Below the pieces are notes generated by a model, which worked only from the letters and a program-made list of their open reading frames with translations, had not been told where the DNA came from and searched no databases. Shown here piece by piece: positions 3,116 through 46,606 of a stretch of 64,000 bases of DNA (its first letter is position 1; every line of letters starts with the position of its first letter). The position numbers and the translations under genes are program-made. The DNA is from an uncultured Gammaproteobacteria bacterium (lineage in GTDB: Bacteria > Patescibacteriota > Patescibacteriia > UBA9934), in NCBI GenBank assembly GCA_964569575.1, contig CAZMTL010000003.1, positions 7,197-71,196 on the forward strand, written 5' to 3'.

Positions 3116-3412
3116 CTAATATTCATCCAAAACCACCCGCCCCTCAAATCCTCCTCGCTCCTCCTTTTTCGAAACTCGCACCCGCTCCACCTCCTCGCGC
3201 TCAATGTTCTTAAACTTCAAAATAGCCTCAATCACCTCAAACACATCCGCCATCTCCTCCACACTCTCCGCCTCCAAAAACTCCCCCACCTCTTCCATCA
3301 ATTTTTCCTTTAACCGCCCCCAATACTCAACATCCTCCGCAACATGATGCACGCACGCCTCACCCTTACTTTCAATAATCCGCGGAATGAAATCACGAAC
3401 CAATTTTGTCAT
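3116..3412 (-). CDS. MazG-like / PRA-PH family nucleotide pyrophosphohydrolase
   Basis: MTKLVRDFIPRII...EEMADVFEVIEAIL...KKEERGGFEGRVVLDEY. It is adjacent to yjjX as a house-cleaning NTPase pair. Confidence 0.6.
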   Translation of the reverse strand: MTKLVRDFIPRIIESKGEACVHHVAEDVEYWGRLKEKLMEEVGEFLEAESVEEMADVFEVIEAILKFKNIEREEVERVRVSKKEERGGFEGRVVLDEY

Positions 3413-3439
3413 ACCCACAAAGTATACCAACCCAAACAA

Positions 3440-6376: not shown

Positions 6377-7450
6377 CTACTGTCTGTCCCAGTCATACAC
6401 CTGCCAGGCCCAGCGAGCCAAACTCGCCGCGTCATCAAAGCTCTCGCGCCGCGAATCCCCTCCAAACAACACAATCAACACAGACTCATCATACGTCCCA
6501 TCCATCGGGTGCATGCGCACAACCAAATTCCATCCTGATTCGTTCAAATATCCAGTCTTCCCTGCGGTCACATACACATCATCATATGCACGATCGTACA
6601 GCAACCAATTCGTACTACTAATCGCGCGATCATATTCTGGATTACTGATACTCTGAATCTTCAAAGCTGATGTCCCCGAAAATCGTCGAACCGTTTCATC
6701 TTCAAAAATCTCACGCGCCATAAATGCCACTTCGCGCGCCGTTGAAACGTTTCCAAGCTCAATTCCAGTCGGATCAACAAACCGCGTGCGCCCCAAATTC
6801 ATCCGCTCCGCCTCGCTATTCATTCGCTCAATAAATGTCCCTTTCGAAAGTCCGCTCAATCGAGCCACCGCATTCGCCGCATTATTCGCCGAAGCAATCA
6901 ACGTCGCTCGCAACAAATCCATTGTATAAAACGTACTTCCCGAATTCGCATACAACTTTGCGCCCCCAACATCATCCGCATCCAACACATTCCCCACTCC
7001 GTACAAATCCAACCCTTGATCAATCGCCACTTTTGACGTCATCAACTTTGTAATCGAAGCGATCGGCCACAACTGCTCAGCTCCCTGCGCAGCTAAAATG
7101 TCACCAGTAGCATTATCGATCACAATATAATAATCCGATGTAACCGTAGGCACGGGTCGAGTAGAAACAAACCGAAGCGAGGGAACGGCCGGCGCAAACG
7201 CAGCTAATTCGGGATACTCTCGCCATCCGTACTGCCGAGCCCAATCCTCAACATCGATCAAAAACCCAGCCGCCGTTCCGGGAATCGCCCGCAACGTTTC
7301 AATCTCAAACGCCGCCTGCAAATCACCTCGCGATTCATACACCTTGCGCAAAACAGACGCGTCCTGAGCATGCACAAAACCAGGCGCAAACAATGCGGTA
7401 AAAAAACAAAGCGCTAATGCAGTTGAGGTAATACGCATACTTATCGCCAC
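6377..7450 (-). CDS. D-alanyl-D-alanine carboxypeptidase (serine-type, PBP5/DacC-like) with signal peptide
   Basis: SxxK (SITKLMT), SxN (SAN) and KTG (AGKTGY) motifs are present, along with an N-terminal signal peptide. Confidence 0.75.
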   Translation of the reverse strand: MAISMRITSTALALCFFTALFAPGFVHAQDASVLRKVYESRGDLQAAFEIETLRAIPGTAAGFLIDVEDWARQYGWREYPELAAFAPAVPSLRFVSTRPVPTVTSDYYIVIDNATGDILAAQGAEQLWPIASITKLMTSKVAIDQGLDLYGVGNVLDADDVGGAKLYANSGSTFYTMDLLRATLIASANNAANAVARLSGLSKGTFIERMNSEAERMNLGRTRFVDPTGIELGNVSTAREVAFMAREIFEDETVRRFSGTSALKIQSISNPEYDRAISSTNWLLYDRAYDDVYVTAGKTGYLNESGWNLVVRMHPMDGTYDESVLIVLFGGDSRRESFDDAASLARWAWQVYDWDRQ

Positions 7451-9279: not shown

Positions 9280-9628
9280 GAAACAAAAACAAGAGAGATG
9301 TTATGGCTAAAGTATACCGAATTTCACCCTCAAAAAATAGACGACTTTTCCACCGAAGATGAATTTTTCGCAACAGTTAACCAAATTCCTAAAACGATTG
9401 TTCAGGAACACAATTAGGCATCAAATATTCCCTCTCTACATGACGGTTCGGGGCCGTCACCAACAACACAATAATCACCACTCCCACAAGCACCAACACC
9501 GACAACAAAACAACGATCAATTTTTGAAACAAGGTCATAGGAAACAAGTATAGCAAACCCGTCATCGTTTATCCGCGACGGAAAAACACCTACCAAAAAA
9601 GCCCAAAAACCACTACACTAAACACACT

Positions 9629-11071
9629 ATGAGTGAACACAAAAAGCTTGCAATCAGTTCGGTGGTACAAATCGGAGGAAAAGTATTAGCCGTTGTATTC
9701 GGAGTCTACACGGTTGCCATTTTTACACGACATCTTGGAGAAGCAGGCTACGGACAACTTTCAACCGTACTCAGCTACCTATCTGTGTTCGCGATCATTG
9801 TGGATTTTGGACTTACGCTCACCACAACACAGATGATTTCCGAAAAAGAAGCCGACGAAAAATCACTCATCGGAAACCTAGTCACGCTTCGAGTCGTCTC
9901 AGCAAGCATCTTCCTCGCCCTCGCTCCACTTATCGCAATCGCTGCCCCCTTCCTTCCCTACGACAACACCATGATCGTCGCGATCGCAATCGGTGCCATT
10001 TCGTACCTATTCGGCAGCACGTCTCAACTATTCGTTGGGGTATTCCAAAAGCGCCTCCTCATGGGACGCGTCGCGTTCGCCGAAATGATCAACCGCCTCG
10101 CCGTATTCTTGGGCGCAATTCTCGCCCCAATTCTAGGGTTCGGCATCGTGGAAATTATCTGGCTAATGACTATTGGAAACGCCTTTCAACTCATTTTAAA
10201 CATCATCTTCGCTCGCCAACTGCTCAAATTCAGTCTGGAATGGAACATCTCAACCTGGATAGAGGTAATTAAACGCAGCTGGCCAATCGGCGCATCCATC
10301 TTTTTCAACCTCATCTACCTGCGCGGAGACATGATCTTCCTCTCTATTTACCGTTCATTCGAAGAAATCGGTCAATACGCTGCGGCGTACAAAATAATGG
10401 ACGTGGTAACCGTGGTACCGGTCATGTTCATGGGACTCATTTTGCCAAAACTGGTACATGACTGGAAAGAAGGGAACAAAGACGCCTTCAACAACCGACT
10501 TCAAACCACGTTCAACCTGTTTTCGTTAATCGCGCTTCCATTCGCCTTCGGAGCTATCGTGACCGGGGTGCCTTTAATGGTACTTATCTCTGGTGACAAC
10601 TTCGCGGAAGCCGGACGTGTCCTTGCAATTCTGGGCCCTGCCGCCGCCATCGTCTTCTACGGCGCCCTTTCCGGCCACGCCATTGTTGGCCTTCAAAAAC
10701 AAAAAGTGATGACGTGGGGATACCTACTCGTCGCCATCATCACCGTCGCCGGCTACATGTACTTCATTCCAACCTACGGAATCTGGGCCGCCGCTTGGTG
10801 GACGCTAATCGCAGAAATTCTGATCTTCCTTCTTACAGCCGCCGTTGTGATAAAAATCACAAACTTCAAACCAAACTTCACCTCAACCGCCAAAGCACTC
10901 GCCGCCAGCATCATCATGACCATCGCTCTCTACACCCTGCCAAACATGCACGTGATCTTCACCATCACTATCGGAACCATCATCTACACCATCTGTCTCC
11001 TCCTCTTCCAAGAACCAACCCTGAAGAAAGCTTCAATGCTATTTTTACCAGAAAATCCACCCATAAAATAA
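9629..11071 (+). CDS. polysaccharide biosynthesis protein / oligosaccharide flippase (Wzx, MOP superfamily)
   Basis: About 14 TM helices and Wzx-like N-terminal region. Confidence 0.7.
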   Translation: MSEHKKLAISSVVQIGGKVLAVVFGVYTVAIFTRHLGEAGYGQLSTVLSYLSVFAIIVDFGLTLTTTQMISEKEADEKSLIGNLVTLRVVSASIFLALAPLIAIAAPFLPYDNTMIVAIAIGAISYLFGSTSQLFVGVFQKRLLMGRVAFAEMINRLAVFLGAILAPILGFGIVEIIWLMTIGNAFQLILNIIFARQLLKFSLEWNISTWIEVIKRSWPIGASIFFNLIYLRGDMIFLSIYRSFEEIGQYAAAYKIMDVVTVVPVMFMGLILPKLVHDWKEGNKDAFNNRLQTTFNLFSLIALPFAFGAIVTGVPLMVLISGDNFAEAGRVLAILGPAAAIVFYGALSGHAIVGLQKQKVMTWGYLLVAIITVAGYMYFIPTYGIWAAAWWTLIAEILIFLLTAAVVIKITNFKPNFTSTAKALAASIIMTIALYTLPNMHVIFTITIGTIIYTICLLLFQEPTLKKASMLFLPENPPIK

Positions 11072-12838: not shown

Positions 12839-13753
12839 CTACCCCCTACTCCCTCCCTCAAACGCCTCCTCCAACATGCCGACATCCAACTTCTTCATTT
12901 TCAACATCACTTCAGTCATACGATCCACCTGCTCCTGCGTCCCACGAATCATCATGTCGTTCATTGAACGTGGAACAATTTGCCACGAAACACCAAACTG
13001 ATCCTTCACCCACCCACACTGCTCCGCTTCGGGAACAGCCGAAAGTTTCTGCCAGTAATAATCAACCTCTGCCTGATCATCGCACATCACCATCAGCGAA
13101 ACCGCTTCGTTAAAAATAAACTTGTGATTCTGCGCGCTATCCATCGCCGCAAACCAGGTGTCATACAACGAAAAATCCGCAAACATCACCCCCTCTTCTT
13201 TTTCGGGTGGATGTTCAGCACCATAACGCGCAATCTGACCCTTCTTCGACTGCTTAAACACCGACGTATAAAAATCGACCGCCTCCTCGGCACGGCCATA
13301 CACATCACCCACAAACAACAGCGAAGGGATAATATTCGGCCTCTCTTCACCATCCGGATCAGTCAAAATCAATTGCCACGAAAACCCATATTTATCCTGA
13401 ATCCAACCGTAACGCTTGCTAAATGGATATGCATCAAGCGGCATCAATACCTTTGCGCCATCCGACAACTTCTCCCAAAGGGTATTCAAATGCTCTTCAG
13501 CCTTCTCGTCGCGCGAAGGATCAAAATTAACCATGAAGGAAATCGATGGATTTGGAACAAAATATGGACCAGCGCTAATCGCCATAAACGGCTGACCAGC
13601 AAGTTGAAACGAAAGAACATCGCAATCGCCCGAAGGAGTCTTGGTTAACAACGCACTTCCAAGAACTTTTGAATCCGGAAACGCCGACACATAAAAATCA
13701 ACCGCCTCTTTTGCCTGATGATCGAACCACAAATGAGGAACAATTTTATTCAT
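12839..13753 (-). CDS. VOC-superfamily protein with two tandem PhnB-like (3-demethylubiquinone-9 3-methyltransferase-like) domains
   Basis: HLWFDHQAKEAVDFY... and a second repeat LLFVGDVYGRAEEAVDFY.... The start was taken at the internal ATG (MNKIVPHLWFD). Confidence 0.55.
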   Translation of the reverse strand: MNKIVPHLWFDHQAKEAVDFYVSAFPDSKVLGSALLTKTPSGDCDVLSFQLAGQPFMAISAGPYFVPNPSISFMVNFDPSRDEKAEEHLNTLWEKLSDGAKVLMPLDAYPFSKRYGWIQDKYGFSWQLILTDPDGEERPNIIPSLLFVGDVYGRAEEAVDFYTSVFKQSKKGQIARYGAEHPPEKEEGVMFADFSLYDTWFAAMDSAQNHKFIFNEAVSLMVMCDDQAEVDYYWQKLSAVPEAEQCGWVKDQFGVSWQIVPRSMNDMMIRGTQEQVDRMTEVMLKMKKLDVGMLEEAFEGGSRG

Positions 13754-13804
13754 ACACGAAGAATTTAATATCAAACTCTTCCACTGTACCACATCCTCAT
13801 CGCG

Positions 13805-14635
13805 CTAAAACAACTTCGCAGCAGCAAGAAAGAAAAGAATCGCGCCAATAACAGTATTTACAAACGGAAACACACGGTACACGGCAAAAATTCCACCTGA
13901 ACCTTTTACAAACGAAGCAATCATCAATGCCACATAGACACCCGCAAACACCACAGCAAAAATCGGATGATGTAACGCAAACAATCCACCAGCCGCAACA
14001 TACAACAACCCGCACAGCACCAACGTACGCGTAAACCCAAGTGCCGTTGCAATCGTACGCAGCTTTACCGCACGATCAGCCTCAATATCAGGAACAGCCG
14101 AATACGCATGCATCGCCATCGCCCACAAACACGCCGCAAAAACCAATTCAAATGGCGGAGCGACTTCCGAAACAAGAAACCATCCCACAAGCGCAGGACA
14201 AATATACAAAATGTTATACGCTGAATCCAAAAACGGCCGAGCCTTTGCACGAATAGGCGTCGCCGAATAAAAATACCCAAAAAAGAAAAACGCCGTTAAT
14301 GCCGCGACCGCAGAAGTGGGCAACAGAAAAAATAACGGCACAAAAGGCAACACACTCCACGCAATCGCACGCTTCAACCGCACATGATCCGAACGATCCA
14401 CCCGCACTTCATATGTCTGCTTCTTCGCATTCACCGCATCCGTCTCATAATCAAACAAATCATTTACGCCGTAAATGAACAAATTTGCCGGAAACGTAAA
14501 AAAGAGCGCTGCATACAGCAACAACGGATCAAGCAACATCTGAGCCGACTCAACCGAAGCTATCACCCCAATCGCAAACGGACCAAGTAAATACACCCAA
14601 AACCGAGGGCGACTAATCAAAAGTAAGGATTTCAT
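13805..14635 (-). CDS. UbiA-family prenyltransferase (lycopene-elongase-like; CrtEb/LyeJ-type candidate)
   Basis: NDxxDxxxD motif (GVNDLFDYETDAVN), a second Asp-rich motif (VPDIEADRAV) and 8-9 TM helices. It sits in the carotenoid gene neighbourhood. Confidence 0.6.
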   Translation of the reverse strand: MKSLLLISRPRFWVYLLGPFAIGVIASVESAQMLLDPLLLYAALFFTFPANLFIYGVNDLFDYETDAVNAKKQTYEVRVDRSDHVRLKRAIAWSVLPFVPLFFLLPTSAVAALTAFFFFGYFYSATPIRAKARPFLDSAYNILYICPALVGWFLVSEVAPPFELVFAACLWAMAMHAYSAVPDIEADRAVKLRTIATALGFTRTLVLCGLLYVAAGGLFALHHPIFAVVFAGVYVALMIASFVKGSGGIFAVYRVFPFVNTVIGAILFFLAAAKLF

Positions 14636-14657: not shown

Positions 14658-15383
14658 ATGAAACACCGCATAATCACCGCAACAATCATCCTCTCGGCCA
14701 TCAGCGCCTTTTTCACGTACAAATTCATTCAGGAATCACCCACATTTCTCACCCCAATCTTCATCGCCGCCATCGCCCTACCAACCATTATCGGCCTTTG
14801 GAAGTCCTTAAAATGGCGAGGACTAGCGCTCTTCCTCGCGCTCGGTGCATTCGCCTGCGCAATCGAAACCATCGGCATCATCACCGGATTCCCTTACGGA
14901 GAATTCACCTACTCAAACGCACTCGGCGCAAAATTATTTGGCACAACACCCTTCCCCGTCTTCTTCGCCTGGTCGCCTCTCGTATTCGGATCGCTCGCCC
15001 TCGCGCAAATCACAACCAAAAAAATCACCTCACAATTTCTTCTCGCCCTAGCACTCCTCATCACCACCGATCTCATCCTAGACCCCGGCAGCGTCGCCCT
15101 CGGTTTCTGGACATGGAAAAACCCAGGCGCGTACTATGGCGTTCCGCTCATCAACTACCTCGGATGGATCATCTCGGGATCGATCGGCATCGCGATCGCA
15201 CAAGCGATGCAAAAACATCATGAACACAAAAGAGCGTCAGCAAGCACATGGATTATTCTGCCGCTGCTGTTCAGCATCTATTTCTGGACCGCAATAAATA
15301 TTCTTGTCACAAACAGCATTCCAGCCATACTAGGCATCGTTTTCTCAGTAATCACGACCGTACTATTCTACAAAAAAATATGA
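14658..15383 (+). CDS. carotenoid biosynthesis membrane protein (Caroten_synth/DUF422, CruF-like candidate carotenoid 1,2-hydratase)
   Basis: About 7 TM helices and a GFPYGEFTY motif. The stop overlaps the photolyase start (ATGA). Confidence 0.45.
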   Translation: MKHRIITATIILSAISAFFTYKFIQESPTFLTPIFIAAIALPTIIGLWKSLKWRGLALFLALGAFACAIETIGIITGFPYGEFTYSNALGAKLFGTTPFPVFFAWSPLVFGSLALAQITTKKITSQFLLALALLITTDLILDPGSVALGFWTWKNPGAYYGVPLINYLGWIISGSIGIAIAQAMQKHHEHKRASASTWIILPLLFSIYFWTAINILVTNSIPAILGIVFSVITTVLFYKKI

Positions 15384-16732
15384 TCGACCCACGCCGAATC
15401 CGCTCGCACAACACACATGAATACAAAAATGGTCCAGTCATCTACTGGATGGACCGCGACATGCGCGCCTCGGACAACTGGGCGCTTCTTCACGCAGCCG
15501 AGCTCGCAAAAAAACACAACGCCCCTCTCGCCGTCGTCTACAATTTAGTCACGGATTTTTTAGGCGGCGGCGCAAGACAACTCGACTTCAAACTCCGCGC
15601 ACTCGAATTGCTGGAAGAAATGTTTCAAAAGAAACACATCTCGTTCACCGTTCTTGTAACAGACGATTCAACAAAAGACCTTCAGGATTTTTTCAAGAAA
15701 ACAAAAGCTGGCTGCATCGTAACAGACTTCTCTCCACTAAAAATCCAACGCAAATGGAAAGCTGAGCTCGCAAAAACGCTCACCGTTCCCTTCCGCGAAG
15801 TCGACACACACAACATCGTGCCTGCTTGGGAAGCATCGAACAAAAAAGAATTCGGAGCCTACACCATCCGACCAAAAATCCACCGCCAACTTAGCGATTT
15901 TCTTGTTGAATTTCCAAAACTCACAAAAACCGAATCGATTTCCCCGCCAACAAAAAACAATTGGACCGAATGGAAAAAATTAATTGGCACTCACCCAACG
16001 CCCCTCACCCTTCCCGCCGGCGAAACAGCCGCAAAAAAAGCGCTTCAGCACTTTTTCAAAAACCGCCTACGAGGCTACGCCGAAAAACGAAACGACCCAA
16101 CGCTCGACGGCCAATCAAACCTGTCACCCTATCTCCACTACGGCCACATCAGCACTCAACGCATCGCGCTCGAACTCAAAAAAGAACACTCGCCACTCGA
16201 AGACAAAGAAGCATTTTTCGAAGAACTTGTCGTCCGAAAAGAACTGGCCGATAATTTTTGCTACTACGAACCCAACTACGATTCCACAAAAGGATTCCCG
16301 ACCTGGGCAAAGCAAACCCTTCTCGACCACGCAAACGACGAACGCGCATTCCTCTACACCAAAAAAGAATTCGAACAGGCAAAAACACACGATCAGCTCT
16401 GGAATGCGGCTCAAATGGAAATGGTGCTAACCGGAAAAATGCACGGCTACATGCGCATGTACTGGGCAAAGAAAATTCTCGAATGGACAAAATCACCAGA
16501 CGAAGCGATGAAAATCGCCATCTACCTCAACGACACCTACGAACTAGACGGCCGCGATCCAAACGGGTACACCGGAATTTCGTGGTCCATCGGCGGCACC
16601 CACGACCGAGCCTGGGGCACCCGTCCAATCTTCGGCAAAATCCGCTACATGAACGACAAAGGCGCAAAGCGGAAATTTGATGTTGAAGCGTACGTAAATA
16701 AATGGATGGGAACGGGCGGATTAGGAATATAA
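15380..16732 (+). CDS. class II CPD (deoxyribodipyrimidine) photolyase
   Basis: The N terminus is GPVIYWMDRDMRASDNWAL. The C-terminal class II signature is WSIGGTHDRAWGTRPIFGKIRYMNDKGAKRKFDVEAYV. Confidence 0.8.
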   Translation: MIDPRRIRSHNTHEYKNGPVIYWMDRDMRASDNWALLHAAELAKKHNAPLAVVYNLVTDFLGGGARQLDFKLRALELLEEMFQKKHISFTVLVTDDSTKDLQDFFKKTKAGCIVTDFSPLKIQRKWKAELAKTLTVPFREVDTHNIVPAWEASNKKEFGAYTIRPKIHRQLSDFLVEFPKLTKTESISPPTKNNWTEWKKLIGTHPTPLTLPAGETAAKKALQHFFKNRLRGYAEKRNDPTLDGQSNLSPYLHYGHISTQRIALELKKEHSPLEDKEAFFEELVVRKELADNFCYYEPNYDSTKGFPTWAKQTLLDHANDERAFLYTKKEFEQAKTHDQLWNAAQMEMVLTGKMHGYMRMYWAKKILEWTKSPDEAMKIAIYLNDTYELDGRDPNGYTGISWSIGGTHDRAWGTRPIFGKIRYMNDKGAKRKFDVEAYVNKWMGTGGLGI

Positions 16733-24267: not shown

Positions 24268-24379
24268 ACGCCTTTGTTTTATCACAAAAACAAATTATTC
24301 GAAACCAAAACGCTCACATTCACCATCACCATTTCCTGCGCTCTATGTTATAATTCCCCTATAAATATCGTGATCATCT

Positions 24380-25249
24380 ATGAATATCAGAACCGCTATT
24401 ATTCCTGTTGCCGGCATGGGAACTCGATTTCTTCCAGCAACAAAAGCTCAGCCAAAAGAAATGCTTGCCGTGGTAGACAAACCCGTCATTCAATACATTG
24501 TTGAAGAAGCTGTATCTGCCGGAATCGAAAACATCATTTTCGTGACAGCAATTGGAAAACGAGCCCTGGAAGATCACTTCGACCGCAACTTCGAGCTAGA
24601 ATACCGACTCGAACAAAAGAAAAAAACAAACGAACTAGAACTGGTACAGCGCATCGGAAAATTGGCGAAATTTTCATTCGTTCGCCAAGACAAACCACTC
24701 GGTGACGGTCATGCAATCCTAACCGCCCTGCCATTTGTTGATCCAAACGAACCTGTCGCGGTACTATTCGGAGACGACATCATCGACGCAAAAAAACCGG
24801 TCATTGGACAGCTCATCGAAACCTACAAAAAATACGGAGACCCGGTAGCAGCAGTGCAAGAAGTCCCTAAAAAAGACGTATCTTCGTACGGAGTAATCGG
24901 CGGAAAAGCTATCAACGAAACCGTTTGGGAAGTAAACAAATTCGTCGAAAAACCAGCGATCAGCGAAGCCCCTTCAAATCTAGCAATTGTTGGTCGATAC
25001 GTGATCACGCCCGAAATCATGCACCTGCTTAAAACACAAAAAGCTGGAAAAGATGGCGAAATTCGACTCGCCGACGCGTTCATCACTCACCTCAAAAACG
25101 GCCGACCAATCTACGGAAAGAAATTTGAAGGCGTGCGCTACGACTGCGGAAACAAACTACAGTTCATTCGAGCGCAAATCGAACTTGGATTAAAACATCC
25201 AGAAGTGAAAAAAGGACTAAAAGCGTATTTAAAAAAACTTGGCCTATGA
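24380..25249 (+). CDS. galU: UTP--glucose-1-phosphate uridylyltransferase GalU
   Basis: AIIPVAGMGTRFLPATKAQPKEMLAVVDKPVIQYIVEEA. Confidence 0.8.
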   Translation: MNIRTAIIPVAGMGTRFLPATKAQPKEMLAVVDKPVIQYIVEEAVSAGIENIIFVTAIGKRALEDHFDRNFELEYRLEQKKKTNELELVQRIGKLAKFSFVRQDKPLGDGHAILTALPFVDPNEPVAVLFGDDIIDAKKPVIGQLIETYKKYGDPVAAVQEVPKKDVSSYGVIGGKAINETVWEVNKFVEKPAISEAPSNLAIVGRYVITPEIMHLLKTQKAGKDGEIRLADAFITHLKNGRPIYGKKFEGVRYDCGNKLQFIRAQIELGLKHPEVKKGLKAYLKKLGL

Positions 25250-26640
25250 AGCACTTCAAAAGAATAACCTCTACCTTGCTTGCCCTAAGCGTCTTTGTGT
25301 TCGTCGGGCAAGGGTGTATTGGTGGCGGAGGATCAACCGCAGGACAAACCATTCCACAGGTCACACTGGAATACTGGCGCGTGTTCGATGGTGAAGAAAG
25401 TTTCCGCACAACCATCAACGCGTACCGGGCTCTACATCCAAACGTACGTATCAACTACCGACGACTGCGATTCGATGAATACGAGCAAGAATTACTCCAA
25501 GCCTTCGCCGAAGGACGCGGTCCGGACATCCTTTCCATTCACAACACGTGGATGAAAGAATATCAACCACTGCTTCAGCCAATGCCAGCGTCCGTAACCA
25601 TCGTGCAGCAAGAACAGCGTGGTAGCCTGCGAAAAGAAGTGGTGAACGTCGCCGTAGAAAAACCAACTATTTCACAAAAAAATCTACGCGAACAATACGT
25701 AGACACGGTTCCCCTCGACGTTATTCTGACCGATCCAGATGCTCAACAAGGCAGCGCCGACAAAATCTACGGTCTTCCTCTTTCGGTCGACACCCTAGCC
25801 CTGTTCTACAATCGAGATCTACTAAACAGCGCCGGCATCGCAACTCCTGCGACAGACTGGCAAACATTGATGGATCATGTAGAAACGCTCACAACGCTAA
25901 ATACGTCAGGTGATGTCCTACAAGCAGGAATCCCTCTTGGAACAGCAGAGAACGTGGAAAGATCAGCCGATATCCTCTCACTGCTGATGATGCAAACCGG
26001 CACAAATATGACCGACGAACGAGGCCGAATCGCCTTCCACACAGCTCCAGCCGGATTCGCAAACGATCTTCCAGCCGTAAACGCGCTTCAGTTCTACACC
26101 GATTTCGCACGCCCAGTACAAAGCGTCTACACATGGAACGACGACATGCCAAATTCATTCGAAGCATTCACAAACGGAACAGCGGCCTACTTCCTTGGAT
26201 ACAGCTACCACACGCCACTCATCCAAACAGCAGCGCCACGACTGAACTTCGGTGTTTCAACCGTGCCACAAATTGCTGGTTCGCAAGAAGTAAACTACGC
26301 AAACTACTGGATCGAAACAGTCTCAAAACAAACCGAATTCAGTGACTGGGCATGGGATTTTCTCCAGTTCGCTTCTCAGCCAGCGAATGTGACAAGCTAC
26401 TTGAACGCAACAAAAAAACCAACCGCTCTTCGACTTCTACGCGAAGAACAGTTGGACGATGAGTTGATCGGTCCATTTGCAGAACAACTTCTGACAGCAA
26501 AAACATGGTACCGCGGTCGCGATGTCGGAGCAGCAGAAACAGCCCTACGACAATTAATCAACGACATTCTAAACGGCACCTACCAAAGTCCCGAGGAAGC
26601 CCTCACCGTTGCCGCAAACAAAGTAAGTCAAACCCTATAA
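25246..26640 (+). CDS. ABC-transporter substrate-binding (extracellular solute-binding family 1-like) lipoprotein, orphan
   Basis: The signal/lipobox-like N terminus is followed by a solute-binding-protein-sized domain. ATGA overlap with galU. No permease or ATPase gene is adjacent. Confidence 0.55.
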   Translation: MKHFKRITSTLLALSVFVFVGQGCIGGGGSTAGQTIPQVTLEYWRVFDGEESFRTTINAYRALHPNVRINYRRLRFDEYEQELLQAFAEGRGPDILSIHNTWMKEYQPLLQPMPASVTIVQQEQRGSLRKEVVNVAVEKPTISQKNLREQYVDTVPLDVILTDPDAQQGSADKIYGLPLSVDTLALFYNRDLLNSAGIATPATDWQTLMDHVETLTTLNTSGDVLQAGIPLGTAENVERSADILSLLMMQTGTNMTDERGRIAFHTAPAGFANDLPAVNALQFYTDFARPVQSVYTWNDDMPNSFEAFTNGTAAYFLGYSYHTPLIQTAAPRLNFGVSTVPQIAGSQEVNYANYWIETVSKQTEFSDWAWDFLQFASQPANVTSYLNATKKPTALRLLREEQLDDELIGPFAEQLLTAKTWYRGRDVGAAETALRQLINDILNGTYQSPEEALTVAANKVSQTL

Positions 26641-26665
26641 AAGCAGGCGAAAGCCTGTTTTTATT
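26641..26665 (+). terminator. terminator CAGGC-GAAA-GCCTG + TTTTT
   Basis: Seen in sequence. Confidence 0.55.
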
Positions 26666-26777
26666 ATTCCCGCCAAAAAACAAGAGGGGCCCCGAGCAGA
26701 ACACGCAGTCGCGCATTCAACTCAGAGCCCCGAAGCCCCGATCCCCACCACACGTAAGCGGTGAGGATATCAGACTT

Positions 26778-28835
26778 CTACTTCACCACGTCACAGGCGC
26801 AGCGTCCGACCTTCTTCAAGGCATGGACACAGAGCCGATCGTAATCCGCCTGCGTGATCACGCAAGCGGAAGCCGTGGCAGTTGGTACTGCTACGACCAC
26901 CATCTGACGCGTTTGCCACACCGCCAGAATGCCGGTTGTGGCTACGGTGCCGAGGATGACCAGGGTCATCGTACGGCTGACAGCACGGCTGGCCGCGTAA
27001 GCCATGGTTCCGTAGACGTCCTTGTCGTTGACCTTCGGTCCGAGCATCGTCAGGAGCTCGGCACAGAGACCAAGAACAACGCCCGAAGTGGTGTAGAGCC
27101 ACCCCGCGAACCGAACGACCGAGCTGAAGCCGTGCATGGCCGGAAAGCCCGCCAGGTTGATCAGCAGGATCACCAACGACACGACGTTCGCGCGAACCGC
27201 GATACCGACAAGTCGAGGATGAGGAGGCTTGGCATGCGGGTTGCGCTCACGCTCCTTCTCGAGAAGCGAGAACACCCGACGCCGATCCTCTGCGCTCTGC
27301 TGAGCCCACCGTTGCAAGGGCTCGAGGTCAGAGACGCCCACCTTGACGAGGAGGTCCTTCATTGCGGTTGCGGGGAACGTGAGCCAGTTGGGGTTCGGGA
27401 TGAACCCTCCCAGCATGCTGATGACGTCGTCCTGCAGTCGAGCGATCAGCCGACCAAGGAAGACGAGTACGGCGCCCGAAGCCGAAACGGTCAACAGGAG
27501 CGCGTGCAGCCACGCGGGTCCCGAAAAACCGATGATGGCCGGAACCGCCATGGTGCCGACGAAGGTAAACGCGTGCAGGAAGTACCCGCCCACGATCGCC
27601 AACCACGGCACCACCATGAACACCAGGAAGGTGCCCAAGGCCAGCACGGATCCGCCACCCATCATCACCGCCAGGACTCGAATGAGCCAGGGCAGGTCAC
27701 GGAAGCGGCCTTCACGCAGGTTGGTGAACTGCCGCACGAACCAGGCCCGGATCAGCGGAACCGGCACGAACCGATCGATCTGGTCCATGCCCCAGGCATA
27801 CCAGCTCGGCGTATGCATCGTGGAGATGTCCACGACGAACTTGCCAAGCGCGGCATGGATCTGCGCAGGAGTCGACGCGTCGTTGAGCTCCGGCAGAATG
27901 CTGATGAGCGCCTGCGGATTGTTCCTCGCAAGCGTGATCAGCCCCTCGAAAGCGCTGTAGGCAAAGCCGTCGTAGGACGGCGGCAGCTGCCCCAGAATCC
28001 ACCCCTCACGTCCGGGGGTGAAGTTCGCAATACGACCACCAGGCATGACCTGATTCAGTCGTTCCTGCGCCTGGTCGGTGTCGCGGTACATGTACCACAC
28101 CAAGTTCCAGTACAGGATGTAGAACCCTGGCAAGAGGTGTTCCGGACACTGCTGCAGGAAGGTCTTGGCGACCCCTGCGTCGGTCGGCGGCTCGCCTTCC
28201 GGCTCCTCGTCCGGACTCACCGTCTCGACGACGATCGTAACCACATCGTTAGGGAAGCAGTCACGACAGAAGGCCTTGTGGAGATTCTCGAGAACCTCGA
28301 GACCACTCAGCTCAATCGAACGGTGATCGCCGGAAACCCCACACAGCACGCCCTTTCGATGAATGTTGTGCTGCCGATGTGGCCCGGTCTGGAACTTCTT
28401 CTCTTCCAGATCGCGCTTTTCGCTCGAGTTGTTCCACGAGTCCATAATGCGCGCCTTCAGGTCATCCTCACTCAAATCGCCATTCGAAAGGATGTTCTTT
28501 GCCATGGAGGCAAAGTTACCAATGAACATGCCGATCGGGTATCGAATAACCAGCGGAACACCCTTCATGCTCTTCACGGTCTCGCCCATCAACTGACCCA
28601 GGAAGATTCGTACGGGCACAGGAATGGCCACGAAGGCGCGGTAGACAAACTCCCAGAAGGGAGCCTTACCGAGCGCCTCCTTCAGGCTATCGCGATGCTC
28701 ATGGAAGAACTTCCCCATGAACTTACGCAGAAGCTCTTGAGTGCCTTGATCGATGGTCTCACCGACCACCGACTCCAGCCCGGGCACGGCGTCGATTCCC
28801 TTCTTGAATTCACGCACCAGCAGGTCGATATTCAT
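26778..28835 (-). CDS. uncharacterised 685-aa polytopic membrane protein (about 390-aa N-terminal soluble domain plus 6 or more TM helices) in the high-GC island
   Basis: The minus-strand ORF has clear TM helices. A GGAG Shine-Dalgarno sits 6 nt upstream of the internal ATG (MNIDLL), and GC is about 62%. Confidence 0.5.
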   Translation of the reverse strand: MNIDLLVREFKKGIDAVPGLESVVGETIDQGTQELLRKFMGKFFHEHRDSLKEALGKAPFWEFVYRAFVAIPVPVRIFLGQLMGETVKSMKGVPLVIRYPIGMFIGNFASMAKNILSNGDLSEDDLKARIMDSWNNSSEKRDLEEKKFQTGPHRQHNIHRKGVLCGVSGDHRSIELSGLEVLENLHKAFCRDCFPNDVVTIVVETVSPDEEPEGEPPTDAGVAKTFLQQCPEHLLPGFYILYWNLVWYMYRDTDQAQERLNQVMPGGRIANFTPGREGWILGQLPPSYDGFAYSAFEGLITLARNNPQALISILPELNDASTPAQIHAALGKFVVDISTMHTPSWYAWGMDQIDRFVPVPLIRAWFVRQFTNLREGRFRDLPWLIRVLAVMMGGGSVLALGTFLVFMVVPWLAIVGGYFLHAFTFVGTMAVPAIIGFSGPAWLHALLLTVSASGAVLVFLGRLIARLQDDVISMLGGFIPNPNWLTFPATAMKDLLVKVGVSDLEPLQRWAQQSAEDRRRVFSLLEKERERNPHAKPPHPRLVGIAVRANVVSLVILLINLAGFPAMHGFSSVVRFAGWLYTTSGVVLGLCAELLTMLGPKVNDKDVYGTMAYAASRAVSRTMTLVILGTVATTGILAVWQTRQMVVVAVPTATASACVITQADYDRLCVHALKKVGRCACDVVK

Positions 28836-28940
28836 GTTGCACTCCACGCAGCTTAGCTGCATTTATGTTTCGGGATATTGAAGTAGAATGTGAAAGAATA
28901 TCCGCAATGCGGAACGCTAAAAAATAACAGATTTTAAGGC

Positions 28941-29011
28941 TTTTGTCAATGTTAAGTCATCAAAACAAACAAAGACTAATGAATGAAATACACGTGCCAA
29001 CATTGACAAAA
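28941..29011. promoter_or_regulatory. 13-bp inverted repeat TTTTGTCAATGTT ... AACATTGACAAAA in the AT-rich divergent promoter region of the island
   Basis: The two perfect arms are 45 bp apart. This is a candidate operator. Confidence 0.4.
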
Positions 29012-29077
29012 AGCATTTTTTCTGATAAATAAAGAGGTTCCGTAATTCACGGAAGCAAAACCACCAAGGAGTACATC

Positions 29078-29365
29078 ATGTTCCTGCTATTCCTCGGCAT
29101 CACCAGCGCAAACCCGCCCTCGCCCTTCGCGAAGGCGGAGGAGAACCTGGTGCTCACCGAAGCACAACGCAGCGAGATGGTATCGCTGCGTAGTCAGCGA
29201 GACGAGCTGGCAGACGAGCTGCTGAAGGCCCTGAAGGAAGTCGACCGGCTGAAGAGCCTGGTACAGACCACCGAAGCGGAGCGCGACAAGTTCAAAGGCA
29301 CGGCGAGCAAGTACGAGCAGTGCCAAGCGGCGCTGACCGACCTGCTCGAGGAGTGTGCCCAGTGA
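29078..29365 (+). CDS. small coiled-coil protein with hydrophobic N terminus (95 aa), island
   Basis: An AAGGAG Shine-Dalgarno sits 7 nt upstream. The sequence is heptad-like (LADELLKALKEVDRLKSLV). Confidence 0.4.
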   Translation: MFLLFLGITSANPPSPFAKAEENLVLTEAQRSEMVSLRSQRDELADELLKALKEVDRLKSLVQTTEAERDKFKGTASKYEQCQAALTDLLEECAQ

Positions 29366-29883
29366 ACGTCCTGTTCCTGCTGCTCGCGAACGCGTCGGCA
29401 AGCGACACGATCGACGAGCTGTGCAACAAGCATCCGGGTCTGCAGACCTGCGCAGCACGCGCAACTGCAGAGCACCCGTACTACATCTGCAAGGTGGGTC
29501 TTTCGCTGGAAGCGTTGAATTGGTCCGACGCCATCAGCGTCACCAACAACCCAAACGGCGAAATTGCGCTCGCCGTTGACGGAAACGAAGTGAAAATCGT
29601 AGACGTCAACAACAGGGCGCAGCTGGCCCAGACCGTCGACGGAACCTGGGTCTACATGCTGAAGCCCAGGCAGTCCTGCACCATGATGGTGCCCGCCCAG
29701 GACCAGTGGCAGGTCACCGCAACGAAGGTGGGCAGCAACAACAACGGCGGCACCATCGAAACGGAAGTGGTGGCCTGGCGCAGCGGTCGAGTACAGCTGT
29801 ACGCGACCTACACACAACCTCTCGGCGGCAGGGGCTACGGAAAGCACTGGGTGCTGACCCCAAGCCTGTTCAAGAAACCGTGA
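29362..29883 (+). CDS. secreted beta-rich hypothetical protein (signal peptide), island
   Basis: A GTG start overlaps the upstream stop (GTGA). The signal peptide is LFLLLANASA. Confidence 0.4.
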   Translation: MNVLFLLLANASASDTIDELCNKHPGLQTCAARATAEHPYYICKVGLSLEALNWSDAISVTNNPNGEIALAVDGNEVKIVDVNNRAQLAQTVDGTWVYMLKPRQSCTMMVPAQDQWQVTATKVGSNNNGGTIETEVVAWRSGRVQLYATYTQPLGGRGYGKHWVLTPSLFKKP

Positions 29884-29899
29884 ACGGCTCGCCGAAATC

Positions 29900-29947
29900 A
29901 AAAGCCCCCGACCACACGCTGTGCGGTCGGGGGCAATCTGTTTTTAT
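29900..29947. terminator. strong GC-rich terminator GCCCCCGACC-loop-GGTCGGGGGC + TTTTT
   Basis: The 10-bp GC stem sits at the island's right border and downstream of a pilin-like gene. Confidence 0.7.
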
Positions 29948-29950
29948 TAA

Positions 29951-30340
29951 CTAAGTAGTGGTAGCGTTTCCTAATTCGGTAATCACGAATTCCGAAATCG
30001 CATAAGCACTCAAGATGATCACTAAACCAATTACAGCTTGTACCAACAATTTCTTTGCTTTTTCAACGTTATCAGTATTACCAGCCGCCGTCATCCAAAG
30101 TCCACCAGCGTAAAGCACGAGAACTAAAAAGACGATTCCTAAAAAGCCCAAAACTGCCTGAATCAAACTTCCCAAAGTCTCCTCTAACGTTCTTCCACCA
30201 GAACCAAACGCCTCATCTCCGACATCGCTAAGTCCAGTTGTTAAATCAATCTGCGCTTGCGCAGGAGTACTAGCGAACAAACCTGCCAACAAAACAAATC
30301 CCACCGTCGGAACCGCTAAAAACTTTAATGCCAAATTCAT
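29951..30340 (-). CDS. VirB2/TrbC-topology pilin-like protein (T4SS pilin-like), paralog 1
   Basis: A signal peptide ending AQA is followed by a variable region. The C-terminal conserved two-helix module is LGFLGIVFLVLVLYAGGLWMTAAGNTDNVEKAKKLLVQAVIGLVIILSAYAI. Confidence 0.55.
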   Translation of the reverse strand: MNLALKFLAVPTVGFVLLAGLFASTPAQAQIDLTTGLSDVGDEAFGSGGRTLEETLGSLIQAVLGFLGIVFLVLVLYAGGLWMTAAGNTDNVEKAKKLLVQAVIGLVIILSAYAISEFVITELGNATTT

Positions 30341-30444
30341 AAATAAATTAAGTAATTACTCAATTAGTACTTCTAGTATAGCACGTTCAGCAACAACCTA
30401 AAGGATATCTGGGGATAGTCTTGAAACCGCGATCAAAACAGAGA

Positions 30445-30858
30445 CTATTCCACAGCAGGAATACCCTGCGTACCTTCTTGAACGCTATCCGTGGTAATGC
30501 CGGAAAGCTCATTCATTACCGTAGTCGTAATGACGTATGCTGAAATAATAAGCACTAAGCCTATCACAGCCTGAACAATTAAACGCTTTGCCTTCGCAAC
30601 CAATTCTACATTTCCTCCAGCTGTCATCCACAAAAAACCTGCGTACAGCATCAGTACAAGAAAGAGAATACCCACGAATCCAAGAGCAGGTGCAATAATG
30701 CGCTCCCCTAAAAAGTCAGGCAAACTCGTTTCTGCGTCAGCTCCATACACAGCAGTGCCCGTAGCTGTTAATCCACTATTTTCAGGATCAAACTGCGCAA
30801 ATGCAAAAATTGGCATCAACAGCAAAGAAATGGCGAGGAGGGATAGCAGTTTTCGCAT
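30445..30858 (-). CDS. VirB2/TrbC-topology pilin-like protein, paralog 2
   Basis: The module is LGFVGILFLVLMLYAGFLWMTAGGNVELVAKAKRLIVQAVIGLVLIISAYVI. Confidence 0.55.
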   Translation of the reverse strand: MRKLLSLLAISLLLMPIFAFAQFDPENSGLTATGTAVYGADAETSLPDFLGERIIAPALGFVGILFLVLMLYAGFLWMTAGGNVELVAKAKRLIVQAVIGLVLIISAYVITTTVMNELSGITTDSVQEGTQGIPAVE

Positions 30859-30902
30859 AACGGAACGTTCGAAGAAAGTTCGAACGAACCGTCATGTGAC
30901 AA

Positions 30903-31316
30903 CTAGTTAGTTGCTCCAATGATGGCTCCAACCACGAATTGCGCGATTGCCCATGCAGAGAAAATGATGGCAAGACCGATCACTCCAGAAATAAGGAGTT
31001 TCTTGGCTTCCTGCACCTTTTCGTCGTTTCCTCCCGCGGTCATCCATTTGAATCCCGCGAAAAGCACGATGATCACCGCAATGATTCCGAGGAATCCAAG
31101 CACAGCATTGATCAACCCACCAATCGTTTCCTGAAGATCAGTGTCTCCAAGACCCGTGTTGGCACGGAAGTCGTCGTCCAAGATTGTACTTGGATCATTT
31201 GCATCAAACTGAGCGTGCGCGATTTGAGTCATTCCAAGGAATGAAAGCGCGAGCGCTAGTCCGACACCAATGCTTGCTACATAGCGTAGAAGTGTGTGCG
31301 TCATAAAATATGACAT
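30903..31316 (-). CDS. VirB2/TrbC-topology pilin-like protein, paralog 3
   Basis: The module is LGFLGIIAVIIVLFAGFKWMTAGGNDEKVQEAKKLLISGVIGLAIIFSAWAI. Confidence 0.55.
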   Translation of the reverse strand: MSYFMTHTLLRYVASIGVGLALALSFLGMTQIAHAQFDANDPSTILDDDFRANTGLGDTDLQETIGGLINAVLGFLGIIAVIIVLFAGFKWMTAGGNDEKVQEAKKLLISGVIGLAIIFSAWAIAQFVVGAIIGATN

Positions 31317-31340
31317 TGTTAAGGTTTATTAGACATGTTA

Positions 31341-31691
31341 TTAGCCCGTAACACTACCGGTCGCAAGACCTTGGAAGATAGCCGTTACAAGCACATAAGA
31401 AGAAGCGATGAGTACCAGGCCCATAACGGCCCAAAGTAACACATTCTTCCCCTTTTCCACCGCCGTGGCGTTCCCGGCTGAAGTCAGCCACAGAAACCCA
31501 CCATACACAAACATCAGCAACGCTACCGAACCTACAATCGAAAGGGCAGCCTGAATCACTCGCGCAATAATCAAGCGAGGATCAGTCACACCATCTCCAA
31601 GCGGATTCACAAGCGTCACGACGTCCTGAGCATGCACAACGATTGGAAGAAAAAGCAGACTTATGAAAATAAGATAAGGAAGCTTTTTCAT
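31341..31691 (-). CDS. VirB2/TrbC-topology pilin-like protein, paralog 4
   Basis: The module is LSIVGSVALLMFVYGGFLWLTSAGNATAVEKGKNVLLWAVMGLVLIASSYVL. Confidence 0.5.
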   Translation of the reverse strand: MKKLPYLIFISLLFLPIVVHAQDVVTLVNPLGDGVTDPRLIIARVIQAALSIVGSVALLMFVYGGFLWLTSAGNATAVEKGKNVLLWAVMGLVLIASSYVLVTAIFQGLATGSVTG

Positions 31692-31743
31692 ACAAGTATT
31701 ATAACATTAATACAAACACTCATGAACACGATTGTGTATATGT

Positions 31744-32232
31744 TTACTGCGTGTCGATAACATTCGTCGCGCCACTTACATCTTCAACCGTCTGTCCGTC
31801 GCTTGGGAGCTGCCCCGTACGAATCAAACTGATCACAATCGTAATCAACGAATACGACGTAAAAATAATCACAAGCCCAATCAACGCTCCAACTAAAATC
31901 TGCTTCCCTTGCTCAACACGTGCCGCATTCCCACCAGAAATCAACCAAAGAAATCCGCCATACACAAACATCAACAAAGCAAGCGAACCCGAAATACTCA
32001 AAATCAACGTAATAATATTCACCATCACCTGCAAAATATCTGAAATTTCGCAGTCGCCACTATCACGACAAGGACATTCCGCGGCACTCGAAGTACAGAT
32101 GCCGGCAAAAATAACTCCCTGCTGACGAATCTGTTCGTATGTTACCGGGCCACCTTGAGCAAACGCAGCCGTTGGAACAAAAAAAGAAACAAAGAGTGCA
32201 AACGACAAAACAAGTTTCGAAAACATATACAA
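31744..32232 (-). CDS. VirB2/TrbC-topology pilin-like protein, paralog 5 (Cys-rich variable region)
   Basis: The module is LSISGSLALLMFVYGGFLWLISGGNAARVEQGKQILVGALIGLVIIFTSYSL. It has 6 Cys in the exposed region. Confidence 0.5.
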   Translation of the reverse strand: MYMFSKLVLSFALFVSFFVPTAAFAQGGPVTYEQIRQQGVIFAGICTSSAAECPCRDSGDCEISDILQVMVNIITLILSISGSLALLMFVYGGFLWLISGGNAARVEQGKQILVGALIGLVIIFTSYSLITIVISLIRTGQLPSDGQTVEDVSGATNVIDTQ

Positions 32233-32272
32233 AAGTATAACACAACCGGTTCTCGGTTGTGTGAATGACTAT

Positions 32273-33265
32273 CTAGCTAATCGTCACCTTGTTCAAAAGC
32301 GCAGAATAATACGCAAGGAAATAACCAAACTGCAGCAACTCAGCTACTTCGTCGAGCGGAGTTTTGCCGCGCGCCTCGTAATCAATCACTTCGGCACCCG
32401 CTTCTTCCAATCCATCTACCACATCCGAAAGTCGCTTCTTCAATGTCTTGTCATACAAATGAGAACGTAGAGCAAAAATGCGCGAAGAAGATCGAGCAGC
32501 GTCCGGCGCCTCTTTCAAAACCGACGCACTCGGAGCGATAGATTCATCCGCAAACACCGCCAACCAAAATTGAATCAACGCCCGAGTCGACACCAAGTGC
32601 CCTTCCGCCAACAACAAGGAACGCTCACCATGCAACGCATTTGCCACAATTTTCGCCGGATTTTCTTCTGATTTTACAGTGATATCGGACGAATCAATCA
32701 CCTCAATCATGGCGTTGACCGCATTACGCACACGCCCCTTTCCAATTTTACAAACACTAGCAACCTGCAAAACACCTAGCAATATACCAGCAAAAAATCC
32801 TCCATGAACACGCTGGCGGTGCATATCATCTTCAGAATCAAACGAAAAATACGTACAACCTTCCTTTTTCGCAAGTGCAGCAAATTTCGAACTCAACCCC
32901 GCGCACAACACCTTCAGTTTCTTCGCACGCGCCTGTCGAACAATGGTCGAAACAAACAAACTATCTTCAATATCAAACGCCACAACAAGCGTATTCGTTC
33001 GCGCAAACTTCGGAAGCTCACCCTCAGTCAAAACAACTACCGGAACAGAAATCTCGGCCTGCAGTGCCGACAAAAACGCCCGAGAAACAAGCGCTGTTCG
33101 CGTATCCGCACAAATCAAAACCGATTCGATCTTCTTTGGAAGAACGCCCTTCTTCACCTCCTGAACAACTTCCCAAGCTCGCATCATCGCCTCCGGCAAA
33201 CGTTCGATACTAAAATTCAGCTCTCCTGGATCAAACGCTTCGTAAGTTTTAATGTCGTCGAGCAT
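32273..33265 (-). CDS. SIS-domain sugar isomerase (bifunctional PGI/PMI-like family)
   Basis: Its length and SIS-like segments fit the family, but the match is weak. Confidence 0.35.
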   Translation of the reverse strand: MLDDIKTYEAFDPGELNFSIERLPEAMMRAWEVVQEVKKGVLPKKIESVLICADTRTALVSRAFLSALQAEISVPVVVLTEGELPKFARTNTLVVAFDIEDSLFVSTIVRQARAKKLKVLCAGLSSKFAALAKKEGCTYFSFDSEDDMHRQRVHGGFFAGILLGVLQVASVCKIGKGRVRNAVNAMIEVIDSSDITVKSEENPAKIVANALHGERSLLLAEGHLVSTRALIQFWLAVFADESIAPSASVLKEAPDAARSSSRIFALRSHLYDKTLKKRLSDVVDGLEEAGAEVIDYEARGKTPLDEVAELLQFGYFLAYYSALLNKVTIS

Positions 33266-46519: not shown

Positions 46520-46606
46520 ATATCCACAGGGGTACAAGGGGCGACCCTGAGTGTAACCTGAGGATGAAGTGTGGATAAGATGTGAATTATGCACAGGTTA
46601 TCCAAA
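46520..46606. promoter_or_regulatory. DnaA boxes upstream of dnaA (aTATCCACA 46520-28, TGTGGATAA 46570-78, TTATCCAaA 46598-06)
   Basis: One perfect and two one-mismatch 9-mers lie between dnaA and rpmH. Confidence 0.6.

Follow-up and report, generated by a model that had tools for sequence, protein, structure and literature searches.

A GC-rich module beside a VirB2-like pilin array, probably resident and clade-conserved in Uhrbacteria-like Patescibacteria

The GC-rich segment and its features

We analyzed a stretch of 64,000 nt of contig CAZMTL010000003.1 (hereafter the window), whose sole GC-high stretch, at 26667-29949, carries three genes and lies between an SBP gene and an array of five VirB2/TrbC-like pilin genes. 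A preliminary description, made from the sequence, had presented this segment as a compositional island and as a candidate for recent horizontal acquisition. The evidence given here indicates that it probably belongs to the VirB2-like pilin locus of Uhrbacteria-like Patescibacteria as a resident accessory module conserved across the clade, and not as a recent island. The features of the locus, with GC given for whole coding sequences (CDS) and GC3 for third codon positions, are the following.

26644..26668, both strands: left-edge bidirectional terminator, hairpin CAGGCGAAAGCCTG then TTTTTATTATT on the plus strand; ends the SBP gene
26778..28835, minus strand: gene for a large membrane protein of 685 aa, GC 0.60, GC3 0.77, Shine-Dalgarno (SD) sequence GGAG
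28836..29077, between the divergent genes: AT-rich control region with back-to-back near-consensus sigma70-type promoters
28949..28921, minus strand: promoter predicted from sequence, TTGACA at 28949-28944, 17 nt, TG-extended TATTTT to 28921
29003..29031, plus strand: promoter predicted from sequence, TTGACA at 29003-29008, 17 nt, TGA-TAAATA at 29026-29031
29078..29365, plus strand: gene for small protein B, 95 aa, GC 0.62, GC3 0.82, SD AAGGAG at 29066-29071
29362..29883, plus strand: gene for small protein A, 173 aa, GC 0.61, GC3 0.80, SD AGGAG, coupled to B
29904..29949, both strands: right-edge bidirectional terminator, 14-bp stem with 11 G-C pairs, T-runs on both strands
29951..32232, minus strand: five VirB2/TrbC-like pilin genes (PF18895), host-like GC3 of 0.38-0.49

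The SD sequences GGAG, AAGGAG and AGGAG sit 6-7 nt before the three start codons. For the large gene, GGAG lies at 28845-28842, 6 nt before the ATG at 28835, and this start is preferred over the one at 28862 because the latter has no SD and the family alignments begin at the Met at 28835. Genes B and A are translationally coupled through a GTGA start/stop overlap (29362-29365), as had been described. In the control region, the two outward-pointing −35 boxes make a perfect 13-nt inverted repeat (28941-28953 and 28999-29011), and each predicted leader, of ~40 nt for the small-gene operon and ~80 nt for the large gene, opens with a hairpin (29038-29054 on the plus strand, 28913-28901 on the minus strand) and closes with the SD. 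The terminators previously proposed at both ends of the segment were recovered: the left one consists of a hairpin at 26644-26657 and a T-run and is, on the minus strand, the sole terminator-like site downstream of the large gene, while the right one (hairpin 29904-29934) serves gene A on the plus strand and the first pilin gene on the minus strand. Its GC stem, given earlier as 10 bp, in fact has 14 pairs, 11 of them G-C. The adjoining five-gene pilin-like array corresponds to the PF18895/TrbC-like genes at 29951-32232, ~13 kb from dnaA.

A perfect 12-nt direct repeat, CTGTTTTTATTA, is found at 26655-26666 and 29938-29949, at both edges of the segment, and has no further copy in the window. 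The two copies coincide with terminator T-tails, and at least two matches with at most one mismatch were obtained in 7 of 100 shuffles. Its interpretation as a target-site duplication or att site was dropped as the leading one, as synteny showed that there was no insertion.

The compositional contrast that had been reported against flanks of ~45% GC was borne out, both by GC in sliding windows and by codon usage. No other run in the window lies 0.08 or more above its median GC, and no 1-kb bin outside the segment exceeds 0.53. In 400-nt windows, GC rises sharply to 0.58-0.635 across ~26.6-28.4 kb and 29.0-30.0 kb, against 0.45-0.51 in the flanks, and falls to 0.45 over the internal spacer (28836-29077), which is itself 36% GC. 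In comparison with the module genes, 32 host reference genes have a GC of 0.472±0.018 (maximum 0.506) and a GC3 of 0.466±0.043 (maximum 0.59), and the adjacent pilin gene has a GC3 of 0.38. Codon use shifts from host to module from 0.10 to 0.55 for Leu CTG, from 0.46 to 0.93 for Lys AAG and from 0.48 to 0.95 for Tyr TAC, and the GC3 periodicity backs the frames and strands of the three genes. Two antisense open reading frames (ORFs), of 783 aa (26505-28856, plus strand) and 235 aa (29194-29901, minus strand), lie across the GC-rich genes and are most GC-rich at codon position 1, the pattern to be expected of shadow frames of GC3-rich genes; a length-based gene caller would choose the wrong strand here. 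Host translational selection was ruled out as the source of the high GC3, since the highly expressed genes for S15, trigger factor, BipA and PNPase are GC3-poor (0.40-0.45), and the codon style of the module is thus not the optimal-codon style of the host.

The module also differs from its host in translation signals. An SD core of at least 4 nt precedes all three module genes but only 4 of the 46 host genes in the window (Fisher p=0.0019), in line with the earlier remark that SD sites mark the module and are scarce around it; the third gene, described there as coupled, is SD-led as well. At host starts, position −1 is a T in 32 of 46 genes (T makes up 23% of the plus strand), a TAnnnT box lies within −16 to −5 in 16 of 46, and a −10-like box stands directly upstream of many starts. 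By these signals, host genes look mostly leaderless.

Such abrupt changes of composition at both edges could arise if a fragment from a GC-rich organism had been joined by chimeric assembly into a contig of the Candidate Phyla Radiation (CPR). This is hardly credible: Logan contigs of run SRR15237806, produced by a different assembler, match the window at 24293-26890 and 28534-30116 with 0 mismatches and span both edges of the segment, the edges are free of repeats of a length that could misdirect a de Bruijn graph, and the adjacency of module and pilins recurs in independent genomes and samples.

Relatives, synteny and an inverted block

Judged by SBP, the relatives of the host are Patescibacteria near Candidatus Uhrbacteria, at 40-55% identity among GTDB species representatives and 61% for L027. 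Searched exhaustively with HMMER, 1.84 billion representative proteins yielded only four homologs of the 685-aa protein (E 1.7e-18 to 1e-4; 24-27% identity to the window protein), namely P0002 (L026, a JGI contig of 186 kb), P0003 (L027), P0004 (L060-62) and P0005 (L063-64). All four lie in one slot, in the order GalU, SBP, pilins (5 to 7, plus), A (minus), B (minus), spacer, large gene (plus), SIS (minus) and Pyr_redox (minus), and the gene order further on (Fer4, NifU, SufS, AhpC, VIT1, PBP1) also matches the window. Two small genes and a gene for a protein of 600-830 aa with a soluble N-half and 5-8 transmembrane (TM) helices likewise follow the pilins in L003, L004, L005, L023 and L057, where the module is again raised in GC. 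The comparison with related genomes that the preliminary description had proposed thus places this architecture at a syntenic position, behind the pilins, in at least ten other genomes.

The content of the slot varies at greater distance. In L006 (17460-19910) and L007 (15677-17714), with a background GC of 0.57, the large protein appears split into a 382-aa soluble protein and a 428-aa protein with nine TM helices, each with a GC3 of ~0.85, which suggests that the 685-aa protein of the window is a fusion of two modules or that the pair in L006 and L007 results from fission. In distant low-GC relatives, the slot holds instead a GT2 gene and a gene for a GT-C-like membrane protein; in L017 and L025, a GT2 glycosyltransferase gene and a gene for a 550-aa multi-TM (GT-C-like) protein stand after the pilins. 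L025 also carries, at 13752-14357 (in a region identical in L044), a gene for a 201-aa lipoprotein-like product with a GC of 0.42 in a genome of 0.29. A GC-high run after the pilins of L035, considered as a further module, proved to be a GT2 gene. In L016, a GC-high run (0.54 versus 0.415) at 7201-9800 lies on the other side of SBP, in the usual place of GalU, and comprises three ORFs with a GC3 of 0.62-0.69, of which two encode four TM helices each; it may be a second compositionally distinct membrane module.

The orientation of the locus in the window is exceptional. SBP is followed immediately by the pilin array on the same strand and in a fixed order (pil5-pil4-pil3-pil2-pil1) in 20 of 23 genome loci and in ~30 metagenome loci, whereas the window pilins, which have collinear one-to-one orthologs in relatives, stand on the opposite strand and in reversed order, the sole inverted case against ~50 loci. 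By its gene order, 26641-32272, comprising the module and the five pilins, is a block inverted between SBP and SIS. The large gene stands next to SBP because pilins and module were inverted together, and the seeming insertion between SBP and the pilins is likewise due to the inversion of the whole block. A search for inverted repeats at both breakpoints, SBP|large gene and pil5|SIS, was negative.

These results bear directly on the proposal that the window genome recently acquired a novel cargo island. In favor of such a transfer are the strong deviation in composition and codon usage, an SD use that differs from that of the host, the perfect 12-nt repeat at both edges, and word-indexed searches that yielded no homologs, with only a self-match of the 173-aa protein when the 685-aa protein, the 173-aa protein and the family alignment were used as queries. 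These last negatives mean little, however, because the index was swamped by TM-type words and missed even P0002-P0005. Against recent transfer, the same module occupies the syntenic site in many relatives, the inversion accounts for the edges, and the 12-mer corresponds to the T-tails of two terminators, with comparable matches in 7 of 100 shuffles. Mobility genes and tRNA genes are absent from the segment: no recombinase (integrase or transposase) was identified among the window genes scanned, Rfam detected only four tRNAs in the window, and the nearest tRNA is 5.6 kb from the segment. Nor did a donor emerge, as blastn and tblastn against phages and plasmids gave no match, the single 685-aa protein had none in metagenomes and IMG/VR, and the only four matches among the 1.84 billion representatives (≤27% identity) all come from the same locus. 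Tblastn of the island proteins against the SBP-defined loci of relatives gave no match, which initially suggested an insertion peculiar to this lineage at an inversion breakpoint. Hhalign linked the large protein of L003 to the family with 83% probability and in collinear fashion. Given in addition that L027 is nearest both in SBP and in the large protein, and that the promoters are of native type, the claim of recent acquisition was abandoned, and we regard it as very improbable.

Composition, expression signals and tempo of divergence

In each of nine genomes the module is richer in GC than its background, by +0.130±0.021 (range +0.09 to +0.154), and the GC of the module and that of its background are correlated (Pearson 0.83, p=0.005; Spearman 0.88, p=0.0016), in a sample that is small and not phylogenetically independent. 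Mean GC3 of module genes is 0.60-0.90 versus 0.33-0.52 for SBP genes (measured in seven genomes), the divergent spacers are AT-rich throughout (0.36-0.44 GC), and, in successive stretches of 90 nt, mean GC is 0.45 just before start codons, 0.58 at the beginning of the CDS and 0.62 after that. The preliminary description had named syntenic presence together with native-like codon usage in relatives as evidence against recent transfer; the former was found, while codon usage proved non-native in every genome. As this non-native usage comes with a near-constant offset that tracks host GC, it is best explained as a maintained property of the locus, and since synonymous sites must be saturated at these divergences, the high GC3 would represent a maintained equilibrium and not the fading trace of a donor. 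We thus infer that the locus upholds its unusual composition, which is no relic of transfer. The conserved position and architecture, and atypical features that scale with the GC of each genome, point to vertical inheritance.

The expression signals are conserved along with the composition. With the database's own gene calls, SD sequences precede 7 of 9 module genes but 3 of 41 host genes in L027, L060 and L063 (p=3.8e-5), in which the T at −1 of host starts is seen as well, and nearly all module genes of relatives have GGAGG, AGGAGG or AAGGAGG. Promoters of the form TTGACAAAA-17-TGnTAnnnT occur in both directions in L003, L023, L026, L027 and L057; in L004 and L005 they precede the corresponding genes. 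The module promoters are thus native-type and conserved.

Between species, the module diverges extremely fast, although its divergence follows relatedness. From the window to L027, identity is 70% for GalU, 61% for SBP and 48-69% for the five pilins, but 23% for the large protein and 29% over half its length (87 aa) for protein A, and protein B is undetectable. L027 is the nearest genome in SBP and in the large protein alike, and at 48-55% SBP identity large proteins are no longer detectable by BLAST. The SIS/PGI-like gene at 32273-33265 also shows only 21-36% identity to its orthologs, against 48-84% for its neighbors.

Within species, in contrast, the module is stable. L060 and L061, which are 99.8% identical, differ by 41 single-nucleotide polymorphisms (SNPs), all of them outside the 4-kb module; 2 SNPs separate L060 from L062, L063 equals L064, and P0004 is unchanged on 15 contigs. 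No alternative alleles or gene contents were seen in the two species with several samples, and no template/variable repeats or silent cassettes, as expected of diversity-generating retroelements or cassette-based hypervariation, were present within or near the module. Ongoing hypermutation or cassette switching is therefore excluded by the stability of the module in L060-62, L063-64 and the P0004 contigs. The L060/L061 SNPs form patches at 1151-1303, 3351-3420, 13826-13885 and 15351-15661, in Wzy, GalU, Pyr_redox and NifU/SufS, that look like recombination tracts. The same pair has a gap at 8151-8244, with a 56-nt length difference and ~90 unalignable nt between the last pilin gene and gene A.

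Could the slot have been refilled repeatedly, by homologous recombination from GC-rich donors such as members of the same CPR clade, with cassettes that have not ameliorated? O-antigen and capsule loci combine conserved flanks with atypical, highly divergent content in this way, and the module does so too. GC-rich relatives exist (L006, L007 and L033, at 0.57-0.62), two of which, L006 and L007, carry an analogous module, the large proteins of L023, L004 and L005 are not detectably related to the family in sequence, and recombination-like tracts surround the locus within one species. Such replacement is nevertheless less likely because module GC follows that of the recipient, the genome nearest by SBP has the nearest large protein, and neither the 1.84 billion representatives nor scans of phage, plasmid, viral and metagenome sequences contained a close donor homolog. 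Moreover, the AT-rich promoters are conserved along with the module, and allelic replacement was not seen within the two species. We therefore consider recurrent replacement quite unlikely.

A further possibility is that the resident module is a recombination hotspot, exchanged far more often than its surroundings owing to diversifying selection on host-contact proteins, and that GC-biased gene conversion has produced both the high GC3 and the fast divergence. Recombining bacterial genes have a higher GC3 in 11 of the 14 groups examined, according to Lassalle et al. (2015, PMC4450053). As in those genes, the excess in the module lies at third codon positions and is unrelated to host optimal codons. 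Biased conversion classically shows itself in fast evolution together with enriched GC, and the module has both. However, the effect of biased conversion on bacterial GC3 is typically far below +0.3, the excess seen in the module, whose boundaries are sharp at start codons and leave the adjacent pilin gene unaffected. The sole within-species comparison with recombination-like SNP patches, limited as it is, has none in the module, and so reveals no rise in recombination there. On balance, we hold a full account by hotspot and biased conversion to be rather unlikely.

As the cause of the maintained GC, we lean tentatively towards selection on transcripts over a regional bias of mutation or conversion, because the GC step coincides with start codons, the pilin gene is untouched, and the high GC travels with a conserved package of strong promoter, 5′ hairpin, SD and strong terminator in mostly leaderless genomes; biased conversion as the cause appears doubtful. 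Under such selection, the module would be kept GC-rich as a separate class of leadered, SD-dependent and probably more stable mRNAs.

The three proteins and their possible function

The large protein consists of an all-alpha soluble N-region of ~395 aa (from a low-confidence model), predicted to be cytoplasmic, followed by 6-7 TM helices (~397-415, 419-437, 446-464, 542-560, 580-598, 622-640 and possibly 645-663) and a Cys-rich C-terminal tail, in agreement with the ~390-aa domain and six or more helices described before. Its N-domain carries the motif IH(156)R..C165..(24)..C190xxC193F, and a five-sequence alignment has as invariants C165, C190, C193, F194, D351, D354, E593, which falls inside a TM helix, and a C-terminal Cys pair. 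The H..C..(24-28)..CxxCF motif is common to the window protein, P0002, P0003, P0004 and P0005, and partly to L057, and L003, L023 and L005 likewise have the terminal Cys pair. By its sequence, the Cys/His motif is probably a metal-binding site. A ZAS anti-sigma domain was considered and rejected: only 3 of the 5 members of the family have H186xxxC190xxC193, the motif lies within a 395-aa domain at residues 165-193, and neither a zf-HC2 match in Pfam nor an adjacent sigma-factor gene was found.

Protein B was correctly described as coiled-coil, its helical, coiled-coil-like sequence being preceded in addition by a short signal-like N-terminus (MFLLFLGITSA). It is much shorter than its equivalents by position in relatives, which have 177-272 aa, canonical signal peptides and a coiled-coil C-terminus. 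Protein A, announced as a 174-aa signal-peptide protein, does have a short signal-like N-terminus but is 173 aa long; it contains 4 Cys, in pairs, and is predicted to be beta-rich. Its equivalents by position are signal-peptide proteins of 185-289 aa, and the one in L027 aligns with it weakly (29% over 87 aa, E=0.016-0.04). The earlier view that none of the three belongs to a recognisable family also stands, since none had a match in Pfam, NCBIfam, PHROGs or PADLOC. Twenty module proteins from the genomes of eight relatives had no Pfam domain, and a profile of the large-protein family gave only TM noise against PDB sequences.

Based on these features, we propose that strong sigma70-type promoters, placed back to back, drive the two divergent transcription units of the module. 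One would produce a large membrane protein, polytopic and with a Cys/His domain that is cytoplasmic and probably binds metal, and the other two small Sec-type secreted proteins, one coiled-coil and one beta-rich with Cys pairs. In the window genome, inversion of the five pilins and the module between SBP and SIS would have put the GC-rich genes beside SBP. The products might possibly be pilus-associated surface or host-contact components (adhesin or tip, or assembly factors) that evolve rapidly between species. Of the preliminary picture of a membrane/secreted module with no known family and a tie to the pilin array, all but the recent acquisition is retained, the tie being supported by synteny in at least ten genomes.

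Several observations weigh against this interpretation of a resident, pilus-associated module, in addition to the small and phylogenetically non-independent sample of nine genomes. C and G are both raised at 4-fold sites of the module, the pattern expected of a compositional force, and the non-coding DNA 3′ of the large gene is GC-rich too (0.55-0.61); both points speak for biased conversion. By hhalign, the large proteins of L023, L004 and L005 match the family with a probability of ~1%, so that homology is not shown and their membership rests on position and architecture (plus the C-terminal Cys pair in L023 and L005), and the small proteins are barely alignable across relatives. The pil5|SIS breakpoint of the inversion lacks the independent assembly support that the SBP|large-gene breakpoint has. 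The AlphaFold2 models, with a predicted local distance difference test (pLDDT) score of 42.6 for the large protein (five-sequence alignment) and 47.6 for the 173-aa protein (single sequence), are unusable. Although the module always adjoins VirB2-like pilins, no direct link of its proteins to pilus function was found: profiles for type IV secretion systems (T4SS) had no match, in Pfam and NCBIfam for the window proteins and in Pfam for the 20 proteins of relatives, and virB4 and virB6 were not identified among the window genes scanned or the called genes of relatives.

Variable genes for surface structures that sit in a fixed slot and have an odd composition are found in the pilA accessory islands of Pseudomonas aeruginosa (tfpO/tfpW-Z) and in O-antigen and capsule loci, which are typically AT-rich and strain-variable in content and encode recognisable enzymes. 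The module shares with these loci a fixed slot between conserved flanks (pilins, and SIS or SBP) and a GC offset, here of +0.09 to +0.154, but it differs in its constant architecture, in the GC-ward direction of the offset, in the lack of variation within the two species and in the absence of recognisable domains. Borrelia vls, a surface-related locus of antigenic variation, is markedly GC-richer than its genome; the module, in contrast, has no silent cassettes or repeats and is identical across samples of one species. By analogy, the module proteins resemble VirB5 (a secreted helical pilus-tip protein) and VirB6/TrbL (polytopic) in size class, localization signals and adjacency to VirB2-type genes, but VirB6 lacks the 395-aa cytoplasmic Cys/His domain of the large protein. 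Compared with bacterial genes that undergo biased conversion, the module has an excess of typically much larger magnitude and sharp boundaries.

T4SS loci of Patescibacteria are reported to contain arrays of 2-11 variable VirB2-like pilins, often near the origin or dnaA, and such an array to be essential in one cultured species, and neither adhesins nor VirB5-type partners were identified (PMC12102498); the text of that study, as searched, does not mention GC content or comparable accessory genes. The present module is likewise physically attached to such an array, that of the five PF18895 genes, which unlike the module are host-like in composition, leaderless and much better conserved. In the window, DnaA-box-like 9-mers lie at 46520-46598, just upstream of dnaA, with one perfect TGTGGATAA and three copies with one mismatch, and a tighter cluster lies at 57941-58003, far from dnaA, with three perfect TGTGGATAA and one perfect TTATCCACA within 63 nt.

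Taken together, these results provide a counter-example to the inference that a compositional island implies recent horizontal transfer: atypical GC, codon usage and ribosome-binding style are conserved at the locus, and an explanation through local selection or biased conversion is needed. With leaderless host genes next to SD-led module genes, a single tiny genome may operate two regimes of translation. The module also defines three uncharacterised and extremely fast-evolving families, two secreted and one membrane-bound, as constant companions of VirB2-like arrays, and because such an array is reported as essential in one cultured species and adhesins as undetected (PMC12102498), the module proteins are candidate host-recognition or pilus-assembly factors. 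It is conceivable, if doubtful, that CPR pilins are thus accompanied by an SD-dependent, GC3-rich, leadered “expression class,” maintained, in genomes whose other mRNAs are AT-richer and leaderless, by a force peculiar to the locus, be it selection on transcript stability or translation mode or a very strong local bias of conversion or mutation, and encoding arms-race proteins that may decide to which host cell the epibiont attaches.

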